A DNA stretch of 43,430 nucleotides from Minisyncoccia bacterium (GTDB taxonomy: Bacteria > Patescibacteriota > Minisyncoccia > Phycocordibacterales > JAACPR01). A program made the translations under genes and the position numbers. Positions 35,711 through 43,430 of the stretch are shown here, piece after piece. The notes below the pieces were generated by a model. It was not told the DNA's origin. It saw only the letters and a list, made by a program, of their open reading frames with translations, and did not search any database. How positions within the stretch are numbered: the first letter of the stretch is position 1; each line of letters starts with the position of its first letter. The stretch lies in assembly GCA_041740795.1 (NCBI GenBank), contig JBGSLH010000014.1, positions 1 to 43,430 of the forward strand, read 5' to 3'.

Positions 35711-36181
35711 ATGTATATAAATAAAGCAATATTAATAGGAAATCTCACACGAGATCCCGAGAAGAAGGCATTACCAAACGGAACAGTAGTAACATCGCTG
35801 AGCCTTGCAACCAACAGAGTCTGGAAGGACCGAGACGGCAAAAAGCAGGAAAGCACCGATTATCACAATGTCGTAGTATTTGGACGACCAGCCGAAACAG
35901 CCGCACAATACCTTGTAAAAGGGCAGAGCGTCTATATCGAAGGTAGAATTCAGACTCGAAGTTGGGATGACAAGGAAGGCAAGAAGCAGTATCGCACAGA
36001 GATCGTTGCTGACTCAGTACAGTTTGGAGCCAAGTCTGGTGGAGGAGGGTCATATGGGAATGCTGATAGTTCATCATCTGCCTCATCTGCACCAAGTTCC
36101 ATCTCAAGCGAACCGACTGACGTTGGAGGCCAGATAGACTATCCAACCGACGATATCAATCCAGAAGACATTCCTTTCTAA
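35711..36181 (+). CDS. ssb: Single-stranded DNA-binding protein
   Basis: NKAILIGNLTRDPE, IEGRIQTRSW, C-terminal DIPF. Confidence 0.98.
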   Translation: MYINKAILIGNLTRDPEKKALPNGTVVTSLSLATNRVWKDRDGKKQESTDYHNVVVFGRPAETAAQYLVKGQSVYIEGRIQTRSWDDKEGKKQYRTEIVADSVQFGAKSGGGGSYGNADSSSSASSAPSSISSEPTDVGGQIDYPTDDINPEDIPF

Positions 36182-36204
36182 ATTACAAGCATAAGACACA
36201 TACC

Positions 36205-36402
36205 ATGAGAGATTATTTTGAAGAAAATCAAATCAAACATATTGACTACAAAGATGTTGCGGTATTGAGCAAGTTCATTAACCCATTCGGTCGGATGCTT
36301 TCTCGAAAACGAACAGGTCTTACGGCCAAAAATCAACGCAAGCTTGCGAACGCAATCAAGCGATCACGATTTATGGGTCTGATGTCATATGTTCGAAGCT
36401 AA
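36205..36402 (+). CDS. rpsR: 30S ribosomal protein S18 (no Cys)
   Basis: IDYKD...L.KF, R.RTG..AK.QR.LA.AIKR.R...L. Confidence 0.96.
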   Translation: MRDYFEENQIKHIDYKDVAVLSKFINPFGRMLSRKRTGLTAKNQRKLANAIKRSRFMGLMSYVRS

Positions 36403-37189: not shown

Positions 37190-37780
37190 TTAACCCTGTG
37201 CTCGCTCTACATATTCATTCTCAACCGTATTCACCACAATTGAGTCTCCTTCGTTCACAAAAATCGGAGTAGTAATCATCGCCCCTGTCTCAATCTTTAC
37301 GAGTTTGTTGGCTCCGTTTGCAGTGTTGCCTTTGACTGCAGGAGGTGCCTCAACAACCTTGAATGTCATTTTGATTGGAAGGGTGATACCGATTACGTTG
37401 TCGTTGTATACGAGTGCATCCACTTCGCAGTTCTCCTTGAGGTACTTGGTTGCATCTCCGAGAAGGGAAGCAAGCAATAATGCTCGATTGGATCGCTTAT
37501 CTCGTTCAAAGAACCAATACTCATTCACTCCTGTTTGCCTGTTTTCCTTCATAAAAGAAAACACGTATTTGGTTCGGTTAAGATCTGCTTCAACTACAGT
37601 ATCCTGTGCATGGAAGGTTTCCTGACGTACTGATCCATTGGTAAGGTTTCTTAATTTTGTTTGGTTTACGGGCTTTCGTTGTTGTTTTCGAAATACATGT
37701 GCCTCAAGCACTTCGTATGGATCGCCATCAAGTACGATATACTTGCGTTCTTTGATCTCGTTGTAATTTAACATAGACAT
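37190..37780 (-). CDS. efp: Elongation factor P
   Basis: DG.PY.V, TKLRNL..G, P.VKGNTA, K....ETGA....P.FV..GD.I.VNT...EY.ER. Confidence 0.93.
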   Translation of the reverse strand: MSMLNYNEIKERKYIVLDGDPYEVLEAHVFRKQQRKPVNQTKLRNLTNGSVRQETFHAQDTVVEADLNRTKYVFSFMKENRQTGVNEYWFFERDKRSNRALLLASLLGDATKYLKENCEVDALVYNDNVIGITLPIKMTFKVVEAPPAVKGNTANGANKLVKIETGAMITTPIFVNEGDSIVVNTVENEYVERAQG

Positions 37781-37883: not shown

Positions 37884-38504
37884 ATGAGATTTATATCTAA
37901 TCGAAGAGGTTTTACTCTTATCGAACTACTTGTAGTTATTTCTATTATCTCTCTTTTATCAAGTGTTGTGCTTGCAAGTGTGAGAGATGCAAGAGATAAG
38001 GCGCAGGGCTCACAATATATTCAAGGAGCACTGCAATTACAAAATGCACTTGAATTATATAAAGCAGATTATGGAAAATACCCGAATGAAGGAGCTATTA
38101 TAACTTCTGGATCTTATGGAAATTTTTATACTAAAGATGGTTTAGAATCTGCCTTAGCTAGTAAGTATATACCAACTATCCCTAACGTAGGTGATACACA
38201 AGAGAATTATCCAGATCTTTTAGTCTACTCTACAGGTATTTATCAAGATTCACTTTATGATTTGTGGAAACTTGAACAAGGGAATGAAGGAGAAGGTTGG
38301 GTAGCTTTGGCTTGTGGTGGAAAAATACCAACCGCATATATAGTAGCTTTTTATAGCAAAGTAGAATTAAATTTTAATAAAGTTGGCTGGATTGAGAGTT
38401 ATTTAAATCAAGAAACTCTCACAGAAGGTTCACAAGCAAGCGGTAATCCTTGGGGTGGATTAGGGTATGATTCCTTTGAGAATTGGTATTGTGTAAGTAT
38501 GTAA
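37884..38504 (+). CDS. Type IV pilin / type II secretion pseudopilin-like protein, AT-rich
   Basis: Prepilin motif RGFTLIELLVVISII; ALELY..D.G.YP. Confidence 0.9.
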   Translation: MRFISNRRGFTLIELLVVISIISLLSSVVLASVRDARDKAQGSQYIQGALQLQNALELYKADYGKYPNEGAIITSGSYGNFYTKDGLESALASKYIPTIPNVGDTQENYPDLLVYSTGIYQDSLYDLWKLEQGNEGEGWVALACGGKIPTAYIVAFYSKVELNFNKVGWIESYLNQETLTEGSQASGNPWGGLGYDSFENWYCVSM

Positions 38505-38570: not shown

Positions 38571-39593
38571 TTATGCAACCGCCTCCTCCTTAAACTTCTT
38601 CCGAATCAACCTCAAAATCTCATCTGTAATCTTCGGATTCTCCCGCAAAAATGTCCGTGCTGCGTCATATCCTCGTCCGAGCTTGTGCTCGCCAAACGCG
38701 TAGGAAGTCCCTGCTTTCTGAATGATTGAGTATTTTTCACCAAGTGCAATAACTTCTCCTTCTTTTGAGATACCTTCGTTGTACATGAGGTCGAACTCGG
38801 TAAGTTTGAATGGGGCAGCAACTTTGTTCTTCACAACCTTTACTCGACATCTTCCCCCCATTATTTCTTCACCTTTTTTGATCTGAGCAATTCGTCGAAT
38901 ATCTAATCGTACAGAGGTGTAGAATTTGAGAGCCTTTCCTCCTGGTGTAGTTTCTGGATTACCGAACATTACTCCAATCTGCATTCGAATTTGGTTAATG
39001 AAGATTACAATAGTTTTGCTTTTTGCTGTGATAGCTGTAAGTTTTCGTAATGCTTGTGACATGAGTCGAGCTTGCTTGCCGACATGATGAGCTCCCATGT
39101 CACCTTCGATTTCATCTTTGGGAGTAAGTGCCGCAACGGAGTCAATAACGATGATGTCCATCTTGCCACTTCGAACGAGACTTTCTACAATCTCAAGTGC
39201 TTGTTCTCCAGTATCTGGTTGTGAAATAAGAAGTTCTTCAACTTTTACTCCGAGTCGTTTGGCGTACTCAGGATCAAGAGCATGTTCGGCATCGATAAAT
39301 GCGCAGACCCCACCTTTTTTTTGTGCTTCGGCGATTGCGTGGAGGGTGAGGGTAGTCTTACCTGATGATTCTGGTCCAAACACTTCGATGATTCGTCCTC
39401 GTGGATATCCTCCAACTCCAAGTGCCTCGTCGAGACCGATTGATCCGGATGGGATCGCATCGATATTGGTCTTGGGTTTGTCGCCAAGCTTCATAATTGC
39501 TTCTTCTCCGAACTTTGTTTTGATCTCCCGTAGTGTTTCTTCTATCGTACTTTCTGATGTGATTGTTTTTGTTGATGTTTTTTTCTTTGCCAT
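38571..39593 (-). CDS. recA: Recombinase RecA
   Basis: [47 protein letters not shown]. Confidence 0.99.
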
Positions 39594-40176: not shown

Positions 40177-42420
40177 TTACATTCTATTTAGGGCGTTCTG
40201 GTTTTCTTCTGGTGTATATTCGTTTGTACCTTGGTTTGCTCCTCCGATGAGAACTTCACGTGGTTTTGAGCCATTCTCGGGTCCTACAATACCTTGTTCC
40301 TCGAGCTGATCCATCAATCGAGCTGCCCTGGCATATCCGACACCGAGCTTGCGCTGGATGTAGGATGTACTTCCTTTGCCGGCCGACACGACTGCTTGCT
40401 TTGCATCTTCAAAGAGATCATCCAGGTCTGCACTTGAATCGCTTCCGTCGAGTGAGGCGATTATTGATGCGACTCCTGTCTGGTCTTCAAGTTTGAGGTC
40501 TACAACTTCGGATTCATAGTTGGATGCGAGCCAGTCTGCAACTTTTTTTACTTCCTGTTCCGAAATAAATGCGGACTGAATACGGATAGGTTTTGCCATT
40601 TCTCCTGACATGAAGAGCATGTCTCCTGCTCCAAGAAGTTTTTCTGCTCCTGGCATATCAAGGATTGTTCGTGAGTCGATCTGTGATGCTACTTGGAGTG
40701 CGAGACGGGTAGGGACGTTCGCCTTGATGAGACCAGTGATGACGTTTACAGACGGCCTTTGTGTCGAAAGGATGAGATGAATGCCGACTGCTCGTGACAT
40801 CTGTGCGAGGCGTACGATTGCAGATTCGAGTTCACGAGGGAATGCCTGCATGATATCTGCAAGTTCATCTATGACAATTACTATATATGGCATTGCAGGA
40901 GGAATCTGATCTTCTTCGATGATTTTGTTCTTGGCACTTGCAATGGCGGGTTTAAGAATTGAATCTTGATATGACTTAACGTCTCGAACTGCGTACTTTT
41001 CAAGAATTCCATACCGTCTATCCATTTCTTTTGCTGCCCACTTGAGTGAAAGAATTGCCTTCTTGGCATCTGTGATTACGTTGGTAAGTAGATGAGGGAT
41101 TTTGTTATATAGAGTAAGTTCGACTCGCTTAGGGTCAATCATGATGAATTTGAGATCGTCTGGTGAATTACGATAGAGGAGAGAAACAAGGATTGCATGG
41201 ATCGTTACTGATTTACCAGAACCTGTCGCTCCGGCGATAAGCATGTGAGGCATCTTGGCAATGTCATTAAAGATAGGTTGCCCTGTGATTCCTTTTCCAA
41301 GACACGTTAGAAGCTGTTTGTCCGAATTTTTAAAATCAAGGTGATCAAGCATCGATCCAAGTCCTACCTTAGTCTTGGTGGTGTTAGGTATCTCAATACC
41401 TACGAGTGACTTGCCTGGGATAGGTGCTTCGACTCGAAGTGGGTGGGCGGCGAGTGCGAGGGAGAGGTCGTTTTGGAGACCAACAATCTTGGCAAGCTTC
41501 ACTCCCTCTGCAGGCTTGAGGGCATATCGTGTCACTGATGGTCCGATCGAAACTTCATCCATTTCTACCTGAATACCAAAATTGAACAGTGTACGTTTGA
41601 TAATATTCGCGTTCGCCTTGATGTCACCAACTCCAGGTTTTCCTGAATCTTTTTCGAGAAGGGTAAGAGGTGGTGGAGTAAATACCTTGCCTGATGCGGA
41701 ACCTGGGAAAAAGATAAGACCGCTTGATTTTTTGGGAGACATATCGTCATCTTCCTCTAGTTCGAGTTTTTTCTTGGGTTCGATCTTGGTCGCATCGTCG
41801 GACTTGCCGTCATCCTTCGCATCCGCTTCAAGAGGGATGTTGGTCTTGAGTTCCTGAGCTTCCGTGAATTCTTTCTGGGCTTTGGGATCTGTCTCGAGCG
41901 ATTCCTGTTTTTTGAACATGGAGAGCTTGATCTTGGCTTCGAGGACGAAAATCGTAGAAATCAGAATCATACCAAAAGTCAGTACGAGACTGACCCAAAA
42001 ATCAAACATACTCACAAGAGGTCGTGCGATCAAGGAACCGATAATTCCTCCACTTATATAGTCTGTCTCGATCGAAAGTAGACTGACGAATACGAGACCT
42101 GAAACAAAGAGGATAAAGGAAGCGATTACTTTTGGAGCTGCGAGATTCTTTTTTATCTCTTTAAGAAAAGAAAAACCAAGAATGGAAAGGATGATAGGGA
42201 GAAGGTAATATCCGATACCAAAGAGATATCGGAGGGCCTGAAATATCGCACGCCCTACGTTCCCGTTCGTACTCTCTGTGGAGTTCCCACCGAAGGCAAT
42301 CAATATAAGGAATAGTGCAACTACAAAAAAACTGACCGCCCAGATTGTTTCGAGCGTTTCTTCTTTTATGTGTTTCAACATACTTTCTTTTTCGATGTCA
42401 GCCTTCTTTTTGCGTCCCAT
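40177..42420 (-). CDS. ftsK: DNA translocase FtsK/SpoIIIE
   Basis: N-terminal TM helices; PHMLIAGATGSGKS, IDPK.VEL, IDELAD, STQRPSV, GAEKLLG.GDML; gamma domain QRKL.VGY.RAAR. Confidence 0.97.
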   Translation of the reverse strand: MGRKKKADIEKESMLKHIKEETLETIWAVSFFVVALFLILIAFGGNSTESTNGNVGRAIFQALRYLFGIGYYLLPIILSILGFSFLKEIKKNLAAPKVIASFILFVSGLVFVSLLSIETDYISGGIIGSLIARPLVSMFDFWVSLVLTFGMILISTIFVLEAKIKLSMFKKQESLETDPKAQKEFTEAQELKTNIPLEADAKDDGKSDDATKIEPKKKLELEEDDDMSPKKSSGLIFFPGSASGKVFTPPPLTLLEKDSGKPGVGDIKANANIIKRTLFNFGIQVEMDEVSIGPSVTRYALKPAEGVKLAKIVGLQNDLSLALAAHPLRVEAPIPGKSLVGIEIPNTTKTKVGLGSMLDHLDFKNSDKQLLTCLGKGITGQPIFNDIAKMPHMLIAGATGSGKSVTIHAILVSLLYRNSPDDLKFIMIDPKRVELTLYNKIPHLLTNVITDAKKAILSLKWAAKEMDRRYGILEKYAVRDVKSYQDSILKPAIASAKNKIIEEDQIPPAMPYIVIVIDELADIMQAFPRELESAIVRLAQMSRAVGIHLILSTQRPSVNVITGLIKANVPTRLALQVASQIDSRTILDMPGAEKLLGAGDMLFMSGEMAKPIRIQSAFISEQEVKKVADWLASNYESEVVDLKLEDQTGVASIIASLDGSDSSADLDDLFEDAKQAVVSAGKGSTSYIQRKLGVGYARAARLMDQLEEQGIVGPENGSKPREVLIGGANQGTNEYTPEENQNALNRM

Positions 42421-42445
42421 ATGATTGCATTTATTTTAACACACC

Positions 42446-42454
42446 TGTGGATAA
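42446..42454 (-). promoter_or_regulatory. DnaA box
   Basis: TGTGGATAA, the reverse complement of consensus TTATCCACA. Confidence 0.5.
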
Positions 42455-42480
42455 AATACCTTTTAAAATAAAGATGAAAC

Positions 42481-43323
42481 ATAAAAGACACCCCGTAATT
42501 TGCTTTAATGTATAAAAAGATATAATGTCCTATATATCAAGTAAGATTTTATAAAAGACATACACAAACCTATGGATAAAAGACAAACAGATAGTGAAAG
42601 ATATGTAGCCAATAAGTTCAATGAATACAAGGAATTTATAAAGGACAAACAAGTATCTTTTGTGATTCGCAAGTCAGAAAGGATTGTCTATGGCATCTAC
42701 ATGCTCTCTCGGTTCATCCCGCAAGAGGAGTCACTTTCTTCGGATCTCAAAAAGACATCACATCACCTACTCGAGACTGTCTCAAAGTTCGTATCCACGA
42801 CTGGTATAACCGAATCCGAGATCGATCGTACTCATGCGCACTTGCAGTACCTCAGTTCGCTTCTCTCACTTGCCTTTATTTCGGGTTATGTTTCAAGCTC
42901 CAATATCGAAATTATAAAAAGCGAAATCAATTATCTTCACAAACATGTCGAAGAGTTATCCACACGTTTTGCGAGTGAGACCGGACAGCTTCACTTCAAG
43001 TCTGATTTGTTTGTGGTAGGGCAGTCGAGGGCATCCAAACATCCTGATGATAAAATGTCCTTTGTCAAAGACACACCCTCTCAAGTTGATCAAAATATGT
43101 CCTTTAACAAATCCAAGCCTCACATCAAGACGCAAACTACTTCTCTTGTGAAACCAAAACCTACCCCATCTATAAATGCAGGAAAAGATACTAGAGAATC
43201 AAGAGTTCTTGATGTTATTCGAGATAAGCGAACTGTGTCTATAAAGGACATATCTTCTGTTATTTTTGATGTAAGTGAAAAGACTATTCAAAGGACTCTT
43301 CAGTTGATGATTGATAAAGGACA
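42481..43323. repeat. Dispersed array of ATAAARGACA-like boxes
   Basis: Exact copies at 42481, 42551, 42576, 42638, 43241, 43314; reverse variants at 42526, 43056, 43098; forward variants at 42748, 43065. Confidence 0.75.
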
Positions 43324-43372
43324 AATTAAAAAAGAAGGCGAAAGACGATGGGCAAAGTATCAACTTGTATAG
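42572..43372 (+). CDS. Protein with helical N-terminal domain and C-terminal DeoR-like winged helix
   Basis: R..RVL.VI....VSIKDI.....VSEKTIQR.L..M...G.I.KEGERRW..Y; K.ERI...IY in a four-helix-like N-terminus. Confidence 0.8.
   Translation: MDKRQTDSERYVANKFNEYKEFIKDKQVSFVIRKSERIVYGIYMLSRFIPQEESLSSDLKKTSHHLLETVSKFVSTTGITESEIDRTHAHLQYLSSLLSLAFISGYVSSSNIEIIKSEINYLHKHVEELSTRFASETGQLHFKSDLFVVGQSRASKHPDDKMSFVKDTPSQVDQNMSFNKSKPHIKTQTTSLVKPKPTPSINAGKDTRESRVLDVIRDKRTVSIKDISSVIFDVSEKTIQRTLQLMIDKGQIKKEGERRWAKYQLV
42956..42964 (+). promoter_or_regulatory. DnaA box inside the HTH gene
   Basis: TTATCCACA exact consensus. Confidence 0.4.
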
Positions 43373-43430
43373 AAATAAAAGAAGAAATCGGACGACTTGA
43401 TCTGGTTGTTCAGAGTTGTTGATTTTATTG

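Follow-up and report, generated by a model that had tools for sequence, protein, structure and literature searches.

Why should a gene hold, across its start codon and throughout its own coding sequence, a dense array of what look like protein-binding sites? This question is raised by one end of a 43,430-base stretch of DNA from a Minisyncoccia bacterium, analyzed here over its whole length (the window), where the gene for a 266-aa winged-helix protein stands divergently to ftsK and is crowded with copies of the box ATAAARGACA, accompanied by DnaA boxes. The window is the entire contig C14 of a 653-kb assembly of 16 contigs that is 80% complete (G000). The bacteria of the Patescibacteria, or candidate phyla radiation (CPR), are ultra-small and mostly uncultured, and to our knowledge hardly anything has been learned about how they regulate their genes or control the cell cycle. 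The locus is probably best explained by a multivalent, self-regulating DNA-binding protein with a predicted operator array over its own gene, which would also act at the parS locus and thereby have a link to the chromosome cycle.

The box array and its conservation

Exact copies of ATAAARGACA occur six times in the window, all on the + strand and all within 42481-43323, while shuffling gives an expectation of 0.34 and none of 100 shuffles reaches six. When one mismatch is allowed, 23 matches are found compared to 8.86 expected (17 in the largest shuffle), and nine of these fall within the same segment, where antisense copies with one mismatch lie at 42526, 43056 and 43098. The 7-base core AARGACA is present in ten copies in 42482-43323. 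In the complete assembly there are 12 exact 10-mers, half of which belong to this array. The estimate of about 11 copies in ~850 bp made in a first-pass annotation of the sequence is therefore fair, and the genome-wide count that it called for likewise shows enrichment here. The imperfect palindromes that it reported at 43056 and 43236 and the encoded peptides DKRQ, IKD, DKGQ and MSF read as it stated, as do the DnaA boxes: the only exact ones of the window are at 42446 (-) and 42956 (+), with a one-mismatch box at 42571 (-). DnaA boxes with at most one mismatch are not enriched across the window (11 found, 11.46 expected), and the assembly contains 18 exact ones.

The array is conserved in orthologous loci. 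All 20 oriented loci from relatives, with protein identities down to 27%, contain 6-18 copies of WAARGACA, nearly all in the gene and the ~100 bp upstream, and AAGGACA is found 91 times in 19.7 kb of gene regions versus seven times in 51.8 kb of flanks. A scan of species representatives gave at least 560 loci encoding relatives of the protein, of which 80 were kept and 77, having an open reading frame (ORF) with the SEKTIQR helix described below, were used (L076, L081 and L095 lack this helix and were dropped). Site density in these 77 loci amounts to 16.4 per kb at -100 to 0 relative to the start, 11.7 at 0 to 100, 2.3 at 300 to 400 and 14.2 at 500 to 600, and is ~0.3 per kb upstream of -300 and from +900 onward. 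The array is therefore two-lobed, with one lobe over the promoter and the 5' end and the other in the part encoding the linker of the protein. Sites over the gene's own promoter and start, with a density peak at -100 to +30, are thus kept in orthologs, and all 20 loci from relatives and all 77 species loci carry the array, across the whole order.

The divergent arrangement with ftsK, already noted in the first-pass annotation, is seen in the ORF list and recurs in all 72 loci with at least 700 bp of upstream sequence (five loci with shorter flanks were not counted), with a median gap of 175 bp between the two genes. The boxes in this gap are distributed unevenly: when the gap is divided into fifths, the one closest to the start of the winged-helix gene contains 71 of the 131 boxes from 68 loci and the one closest to ftsK five. 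Control of ftsK and recA expression, proposed earlier, is possible rather than indicated, as the intergenic boxes crowd the winged-helix gene's own start.

A sequence logo of 214 sites has the consensus tTAAARGACA, which is also obtained with a larger set of 648 sites. It holds no information beyond ~11 positions, and no second element is found at a fixed distance up to +44; the box has the size of one winged-helix site. The box was also considered as a -35 promoter element or promoter hexamer, but this was rejected as no -10-like signal occurs at any fixed distance. Among the 214 boxes, 160 are sense and 54 antisense. Neighboring boxes, in most cases direct repeats, are preferentially spaced by 11 bp (34 pairs), by 20-21 bp (33 pairs), by 24 bp or by 31 bp, so that the sites come to lie on the same face of the DNA helix. 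Recurrent inverted pairs, with an offset of 9-10 bp, were seen as well.

Selection at the DNA level

Synonymous shuffling, in which codons were exchanged among synonymous positions within each of 20 genes while protein and codon usage were kept, yields a null mean of 58.8 in-gene core sites (standard deviation 5.6, maximum 82 in 1000 shuffles), compared to 164 observed, an excess of 2.8 times. These sites occupy all three sense phases (62, 31 and 29) and two antisense phases (22 and 20), and the peptides that they encode include KDI, KKT, KDK, KGQ, KDT and MSF. At the near-invariant I-K-D of the winged helix (67 loci), Ile is encoded by ATA in 48 of 65 cases and Asp by GAC in 55 of 66, while the gene-wide shares of these codons are 40% and 52%. 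Furthermore, the otherwise unconserved linker often reads (M/V)SFIKDT, which is the translation of the palindromic double box TGTCCTTTATAAAGGACA; the window has the imperfect form MSFVKDT at 43056-43073. Neither chance nor the protein sequence accounts for the array. That selection acts on the DNA itself, as suspected in the first-pass annotation, is thus borne out by the synonymous-site comparison in orthologs, where the sites exceed all 1000 shuffles, by their spread over all sense phases and both strands, and by the codon bias at I-K-D.

The encoded protein

The AlphaFold2 model of the 266-aa protein has a mean predicted local distance difference test score (pLDDT) of 77 and consists of a helical bundle, a disordered linker and a C-terminal winged helix (Table 1). 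The best four structure matches of the N-terminal domain (residues 18-136) are 2gsc, Avd in the complex of the diversity-generating retroelement (8ub7), Avd alone (4dwl) and 2rld, with Z scores of 14.6-15.2 and root-mean-square deviations (rmsd) of 1.7-2.4 over 105-116 residues at 14-15% identity; the Foldseek E values are 2e-3 to 2e-2. The domain is hence superposable on the four-helix bundle of Avd and the 23S-rRNA intervening-sequence (IVS) proteins (PF05635, PF22296). In Pfam, bAvd is matched by one of 38 homologs (7.7e-5) and not by the protein of the window.

When four copies of residues 1-140 were modeled together, the self-association score was 0.71, versus 0.02 for the best of three controls, with the runs agreeing in at least 91% of contacts and a partner pLDDT of at least 80. 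Of 30 proteins solved as pairs, 20 reach the same mark, as does one of 23 solved as single chains; these counts are only roughly valid here, since the model was built from four copies and an alignment made for this analysis. A ring-like, head-to-tail interface is predicted, with residues 54-127 of one copy against residues 12-77 of the next. As Avd pentamers are among the solved structures, the pass may reflect this likeness.

The C-terminal domain has three helices and a beta-hairpin wing in the model and superposes on solved winged helices (Z-alpha, AntR, ROK, TtgV and MecI; Z 9.1-10.9, rmsd 1.1-2.9 over 59-63 residues), resembling in structure comparison the MecI/BlaI, ArsR-type and ROK-type domains. 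Of the 38 aligned homologs, 22 match PF03965 (Penicillinase_R) and 33 match PF08220 (HTH_DeoR) at E <=0.01, and the family is therefore a distant relative of these regulators. A sequence search of the PDB returned weak matches only, the best being 1p6r (E 0.063). The winged-helix domain named in the first-pass annotation is thus faint in Pfam, where the matches stay below the curated cut-offs, and clear in the model. Pfam searches found no initiator or AAA+ domain in the protein. The recognition helix S-E-K-T-I-Q-R and the wing G-x-R-R-W-x-x-Y (GERRW..Y) are invariant in the 38 homologs; to judge from the alignments, the invariant helix would parallel the invariant GACA core of the box.

Family range and co-occurrence with the array

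At E <=1e-3, 341 homologs were obtained, all unnamed or generically named and from sources labeled Parcubacteria, Paceibacterota or Minisyncoccota, and a protein atlas lists only 'hypothetical protein' clusters from Minisyncoccota. Of 41 relatives, 34 yielded the protein. The profile was matched by 46 genomes in a sample of 201 from the whole phylum, full-length matches being confined to the order and class. The remaining matches, set aside here, cover only the winged helix of ~350-aa proteins of other architecture, without boxes and without an ftsK neighbor.

The boxes follow the same range. A pattern search of 11 genomes of the order, the assembly of the window included, revealed tight clusters in 10; the exception, G026, is 92% complete and also lacks a detectable ftsK. 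In every pattern-searched genome in which both clusters and the gene were found, the densest cluster is on the winged-helix gene. No two copies of TAAARGACA lie within 300 bp of each other in five single-contig genomes of other classes, all of which lack the full-length family.

A putative second target at the parS locus

TAAARGACA is not enriched genome-wide in the relatives, where its counts equal those of a reversed control; its clusters are found at the winged-helix gene and at one syntenic locus. The gene order at this second locus is tRNA-Pro/Gly/Arg (-), cca (+), a non-coding gap of 200-530 bp, xth (-) and a tyrosine recombinase gene (-), and it lies 25-35 kb from dnaA. It holds the only near-consensus parS palindromes of the contigs examined (Table 1). 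In the assembly of the window, parS-type palindromes (TTTCACGTGAAA core) occur in and around cca and the tRNA-Pro/Gly/Arg genes, including within the cca coding sequence, and nowhere else in its 653 kb. ParB is encoded in this assembly, and both ParB and the true parS sites are located apart from the winged-helix locus.

At the second locus the boxes are combined with DnaA boxes. At the far end of the cca-xth gap, a box (TAAAGGACA) is followed after 4-5 bases by TGTGGATAA and after a further 1-5 bases by an inverted box (TGTCCTTTA) in L024, L025, L026 and L028; L027 has a variant of this composite, and in G000 its DnaA box is degenerate. Beside tRNA-Gly, a box overlaps a DnaA box (TGTCTTTTATACACA) and TTATCCACA follows 11 bp later, in L024, L025 and L027 and as a variant in L026. 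The same kind of overlap spans the start codon of the winged-helix gene in the window (42571-42585). The overlap pattern TGTCYTTTATNCACA, which is also present at the parS locus of relatives, is found as a single copy in 15 of 61 family representatives of the order, compared to one genome for a reversed control. On the contigs of three relatives and in G000, 7 of 37 exact DnaA boxes are within 100 bp of a box versus 0.25 expected, a difference for which the P value is overstated as the genomes are related. Together, these composites and the proximity of the two kinds of site support the connection between DnaA boxes and the motif that had been drawn earlier.

Boxes were also observed in other positions. 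All six genomes viewed have two or three within the coding sequence of cca, at a distance of ~400-500 nt from its start (L024:2616-2666, L025:2245-2277, G000:C9:1422-1462). At L029 (G040:C1:238199-238235), where the tRNA-Ser and tRNA-Glu genes point away from each other, three boxes immediately precede their -35-like elements, a position that would be typical of an activator or UP-element-like site.

Position relative to the replication origin

In the assembly of the window, dnaA is on another contig (C15). The position of the gene relative to the origin was therefore read from three relatives (G018, G040 and G013). Along the 388-kb contig C1 of G018, the cumulative GC skew decreases as far as ~266 kb, runs level until ~296 kb and then rises, with the minimum at 293.6 kb, dnaA at 292.0 kb and the winged-helix gene at 379.4 kb. 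Contig C2 of G040 has its minimum at 123.0 kb, with dnaA located at 121.8 kb and the winged-helix gene at 189.8 kb, and contig C1 of G013 has a skew plateau at 70-120 kb, the densest DnaA-box cluster at 117.0 kb beside dnaA, and the gene at 194 kb. The replication switch is thus at or near dnaA in all three, 67-113 kb away from the winged-helix gene, and the array on this gene is therefore not an origin. Within the window, the GC skew is positive throughout, without a switch. Directly repeated sites as in iterons are present, with spacing peaks at 11, 20-21 and 31 bp, but the array is not at a skew switch and no initiator is encoded by the gene or adjacent to it. The oriC-type DnaA-box clusters beside dnaA in G013 and G040 carry no boxes.

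The second locus, which has the densest DnaA-box cluster on contig C1 of G018, was considered as oriC as well. This was rejected, since the skew of G040 continues to fall across the locus until dnaA is reached and the densest DnaA-box cluster of G013 adjoins dnaA; the second locus is the parS cluster and not the origin.

The link to replication or segregation made in the first-pass annotation therefore stands in part. A connection with segregation fits the boxes at the parS cluster, whereas the iteron-type origin is contradicted by the skew of the three relatives and of the window, and the comparison with skew inflections and dnaA that had been suggested places the locus away from them.

Interpretation and alternative explanations

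In the explanation that we favor, the tTAAARGACA boxes are the binding sites of the encoded protein, for which their shared taxonomic range, the location of the densest array always on this gene and the pairing of an invariant helix with an invariant box are the reasons. The Avd-like N-terminal bundle would probably assemble head-to-tail into a ring-like oligomer, and the ~65-residue flexible linker with the C-terminal winged helix would provide several loosely tethered DNA-binding heads per particle. Such a particle could attach to box clusters in which orientation and spacing vary, while preferring one helix face; several winged helices on flexible tethers would explain why the clusters tolerate changes in orientation and spacing, yet are helically phased. 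The boxes over the gene's own promoter and start suggest negative autoregulation, presumably by occlusion or by a roadblock. The second cluster is in the segment encoding the linker, whose amino-acid sequence is free to accommodate DNA sites. A few further boxes, next to high-affinity DnaA boxes at the parS/tRNA-cca-xth locus, would be bound by the protein as well, and it could thus be a factor with a small regulon tied to the chromosome cycle (DnaA, ParB/parS, FtsK). The extension of the boxes through the coding sequence, their presence at the parS cluster and their position against consensus DnaA boxes suggest more than a local repressor.

A bolder version, which we offer with considerable reserve, is that the protein is an undescribed chromosome-cycle factor of Paceibacteria, whose ring oligomer nucleates on the array of its own gene and on that of the parS cluster, both set against consensus DnaA boxes. 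As the two loci flank the origin, such a complex could connect the two arms near the origin, retain DnaA or set it free, and couple these actions to FtsK, with possible effects on DnaA, ParB or ftsK.

Several observations weigh against the favored explanation. The link between protein and box is correlative, and one clade versus the rest amounts to a single evolutionary contrast. As the recognition helix does not vary, there is no co-variation of protein and box to compare. Simple DNA binding does not account for the unequal numbers of sense and antisense boxes. In the window, the protein stays below the Pfam cut-offs (19.0 bits versus 22.6 for PF03965 and 16.6 versus 21 for PF08220), and the match of its bundle is only slightly above that of generic helical bundles (talin, Z 13.4). 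The gene was missed in 7 of 41 relatives. In the five of these that were checked, ftsK is 42 bp from the contig end (G008), cut by the contig end (G029) or likewise not found (G019, G023 and G026), so that the misses look like assembly loss. Finally, a promoter scan found no full sigma-70 match in the intergenic region, which leaves the boxes unplaced relative to the transcription start; a hand-picked promoter, TTGCTT-16-TATAAT (42500-42527), fails the rule of the scan and is kept as a putative element only.

Among the alternatives, one accepts the binding and differs in its purpose: the array would be a structural, centromere-like or domain-organizing site instead of an operator, and an oligomer nucleating on the gene and the parS locus could bridge loci on either side of dnaA, hold DnaA at high-affinity boxes or hand DNA to FtsK. 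This explanation, a rival for the function and not for the binding, is in our judgment unlikely but deserves serious attention. It would account for the interleaving of the boxes with the only near-consensus parS sites of the contigs, for the proximity of exact DnaA boxes to boxes (7 of 37, with the same caution about related genomes), for the conservation of both types of composite, for the adjacency of ftsK in 72 of 72 loci, and for an array that spans the whole coding sequence, which simple autoregulation does not need. On the other hand, FtsK is the only partition-type ATPase nearby, the oriC-type DnaA-box clusters of G013 and G040 are without boxes, and a divergent gene pair with boxes over one start is typical of ordinary regulators. 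If the binding itself is questioned, the boxes could belong to another factor, with the winged-helix gene being merely a target or bystander. The binding of the boxes by the protein is a prediction, and the box, being also present at tRNA promoters and inside cca, is not private to the gene; yet the densest cluster is on the winged-helix gene in the pattern-searched genomes that have clusters and the gene, array and family share one taxonomic range, and the recognition helix is as invariant as the box, for which reasons we give this alternative little credence.

An iteron-type origin, or a part of oriC, is very improbable. Direct repeats at ~11-bp spacing and nearby DnaA boxes would suit it, and in phage lambda the origin repeats lie in the linker-coding part of the initiator gene, but the skew switches at or near dnaA and away from the gene in the three relatives, stays positive throughout the window, and the protein has neither an initiator nor an AAA+ domain. 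The least credible explanation, in our opinion next to impossible, is that the motif results from repeated peptides or codon usage. Two boxes do coincide with the conserved peptides IKD and DKGQ. Against this stand the synonymous shuffle (58.8 versus 164 observed), the boxes in upstream non-coding DNA and at other loci, their occurrence in five of six strand-and-phase classes, the codons biased toward the box at I-K-D, and the linker (M/V)SFIKDT, which is itself the translation of a palindromic double box.

Features and surroundings of the locus

The positions of the features are compiled in Table 1. Downstream of ftsK and on the same strand follow a 178-aa ORF and then recA, which was found at the far end of 14 of the 3-kb flanks of the orthologous loci. 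No ParA, ParM or TubZ gene is present in these 3-kb flanks, of which FtsK is the conserved neighbor. Other nearby genes of the window, named from their translations, encode a type IV pilin-like protein (prepilin N-terminus RGFTLIELLVV), elongation factor P, SSB and ribosomal protein S18; the coordinates of these ordinary neighbors are 37884-38504, 37190-37780 and 35711-36402. Elsewhere in the assembly, the N-terminal part of the winged-helix protein has weak similarity (E 0.03) to a 357-aa ORF (G000:C8:14760-15038), ~1.6 kb from the ParB gene (C8:16664).

Table 1. Coordinates of the winged-helix locus, the predicted domains of its protein, and the second locus. Plain numbers are positions in the window; other positions are given as genome:contig
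Feature	Position	Strand	Remarks
Winged-helix-protein gene (266-aa ORF)	42572-43372	+	ORF list
ftsK, conserved divergent neighbor	40177-42420	-	ORF list
recA	38571-39593	as ftsK	ORF list
ftsK/winged-helix-gene intergenic region	42421-42571		3 boxes, one exact DnaA box, perfect TATAAT at 42522-42527
Exact DnaA box, intergenic	42446-42454	-	same place in 3 of 6 genus-level loci
Box ATAAAAGACA, upstream of gene	42481-42490	+	exact motif
Box ATATAGGACA	42526-42535	-	1 mismatch; overlaps TATAAT 42522-42527
Box ATAAAAGACA	42551-42560	+	exact motif; 12-21 bases before start codon
Composite TATGGATAAAAGACA across start codon	42571-42585		one-mismatch DnaA box (-, 42571-42579) overlapping box (+, 42576-42585)
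Box ATAAAGGACA	42638-42647	+	exact motif; codons F-I-K-D-K
Weaker box AAAAAGACA	42749-42757	+	core only
Exact DnaA box TTATCCACA in gene	42956-42964	+	codons L-S-T, at +384; kept in 6 of 6 genus loci
Inverted pair TGTCCTTTG/TCAAAGACA	43056-43073		linker-coding part; peptide MSFVKDT
Box TTAAAGGACA	43098-43107	-	1 mismatch; linker-coding part; peptide MSF
Box ATAAAGGACA	43241-43250	+	exact motif; on near-invariant I-K-D codons of winged helix
Box ATAAAGGACA	43314-43323	+	exact motif; codons D-K-G-Q
Avd-like helical bundle (predicted)	42572-42979		residues 1-136; helices 3-136, pLDDT mostly >90
Disordered linker (predicted)	42980-43180		residues 137-203; pLDDT <50
Winged helix (predicted)	43181-43369		residues 204-266; topology H-E-H-H-E-E, pLDDT ~90
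Second locus	G000:C9:1-4000
parS palindromes	G000:C9:1625 and 1982		cluster region C9:1613-2500
parS palindromes	G018:C1:266,275 and 267,643
parS palindromes, four	G040:C2:94483-94806		94.5-94.8 kb
parS palindromes, seven	G013:C1:85132-87183		85.1-87.2 kb

The stop codon of the winged-helix gene is 58 bases from the end of the contig, and blastn found no continuation of C14 within the assembly. The assemblies of several relatives likewise break at or beside the locus (window 43373-43430; G008:C53:1-42; G029:C2:1-15), which is why the gene is often missing from otherwise near-complete bins. A downstream rRNA operon, which would explain both the break and a conserved promoter-like region, was rejected: in none of 20 loci did Rfam detect an rRNA within 3 kb, L011 and L005 were likewise negative, and no rRNA gene adjoins the broken locus. 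In G018, five protein genes follow the winged-helix gene and the 23S rRNA begins 6 kb away. Among 14 RNA runs, none was listed as covering the winged-helix locus.

A conserved non-coding region of 400-600 nt was observed 3' of the gene (L011:2262-2860, with an equivalent stretch in L004-L022). It comprises, in this order, TTGACT..TAnnaT, GGG-TTATCCACA with an exact DnaA box, a second TATAAT, and blocks such as cattgaaaattaaata and ggttagttaatga. The window stops at the first -35-like element of this region (43419-43430). An exact DnaA box 60-350 bp after the gene, between two promoter-like elements, is present in all 13 more distant loci. The region may be a long leader or an undescribed RNA; neither this region nor the cca-xth gap has an Rfam match at an E value of 1 or better.

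Significance and comparison with known systems

A full-text literature search, judged from titles and the beginnings of abstracts, returned nothing on the protein, the box or the locus. New in this work are the synonymous-site test, the prediction of fold and oligomer, the target at the parS locus and the composites with DnaA boxes. The analysis yields one protein family with at least 560 loci, one sharply defined box and two conserved putative target loci, each of which can be tested directly. The locus offers a clear example from nature of putative DNA-binding sites constraining the coding sequence of the very protein that would bind them, with the linker (M/V)SFIKDT as a double box. The pairing of the box with consensus DnaA boxes and parS provides an entry point to the coordination of replication, segregation and division in genomes of ~0.6-0.7 Mb. 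If the reading as a chromosome-cycle factor were true, the protein would be a minimal-genome substitute for several separate regulators of model bacteria.

The closest parallel in overall design is MraZ, a ring oligomer with a SpoVT/AbrB-like fold that autoregulates through a direct-repeat operator before the dcw operon, in which the repeats are about one helical turn apart. Both systems combine a ring-forming oligomer (here predicted), short direct repeats spaced by about one helical turn, self-regulation (here proposed) and cell-division neighbors. However, an Avd-like bundle with a winged helix takes the place of the SpoVT/AbrB-like fold, and the present array spans the coding sequence as well, with its boxes found again next to DnaA boxes at the parS locus. 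The centromere binders TubR (at tubC) and AspA are small winged-helix proteins that coat repeat arrays by their own genes and autoregulate, and their structures (3m9a, 5k5q) are among the weak Foldseek matches of the C-terminal domain, as generic winged-helix matches. These are plasmid systems with a dedicated motor (TubZ or ParA), whereas the present one is chromosomal and order-wide, has only FtsK nearby and carries an extra domain predicted to oligomerize.

At the level of individual domains, the winged helix is matched best in sequence by the Penicillinase_R repressors BlaI, MecI and CopY (E <=0.01 for 22 of 38 members). These repressors read TACA/TGTA half-sites, close to the GACA/TGTC core found here, but the present protein lacks their C-terminal dimerization or sensor-cleavage domain, and its putative sites are mostly single or direct repeats instead of one palindromic operator. 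The Avd/23S-rRNA-IVS proteins (2gsc, 2rld) are the top structure matches of residues 18-136, for which a head-to-tail interface, as in a ring, is predicted. In contrast to Avd, there is no retroelement here, identity is 14-15%, the bundle is fused to a winged helix, and four copies were modeled compared to the Avd pentamer.

The arrangement of the sites also has precedents. CtrA of Caulobacter, Spo0A of Bacillus, MtrA and AdpA bind beside or over DnaA boxes, and datA/DARS and the DnaA-box clusters (DBCs) of Bacillus lie outside oriC. As with CtrA, Spo0A, MtrA and AdpA, the putative sites of a second protein here overlap or flank consensus DnaA boxes, although the present composites are at the parS locus and the protein's own gene instead of an oriC-type cluster, and another protein family is involved. 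Lastly, ParB has a parS site inside its own gene (spo0J of Bacillus), and the origin repeats bound by lambda O are in the linker-coding part of its gene. In these cases, as putatively here, the cis sites of a DNA-binding protein lie within its own coding sequence; the difference is that this genome has a separate ParB with true parS sites, and that the winged-helix locus is not an origin.

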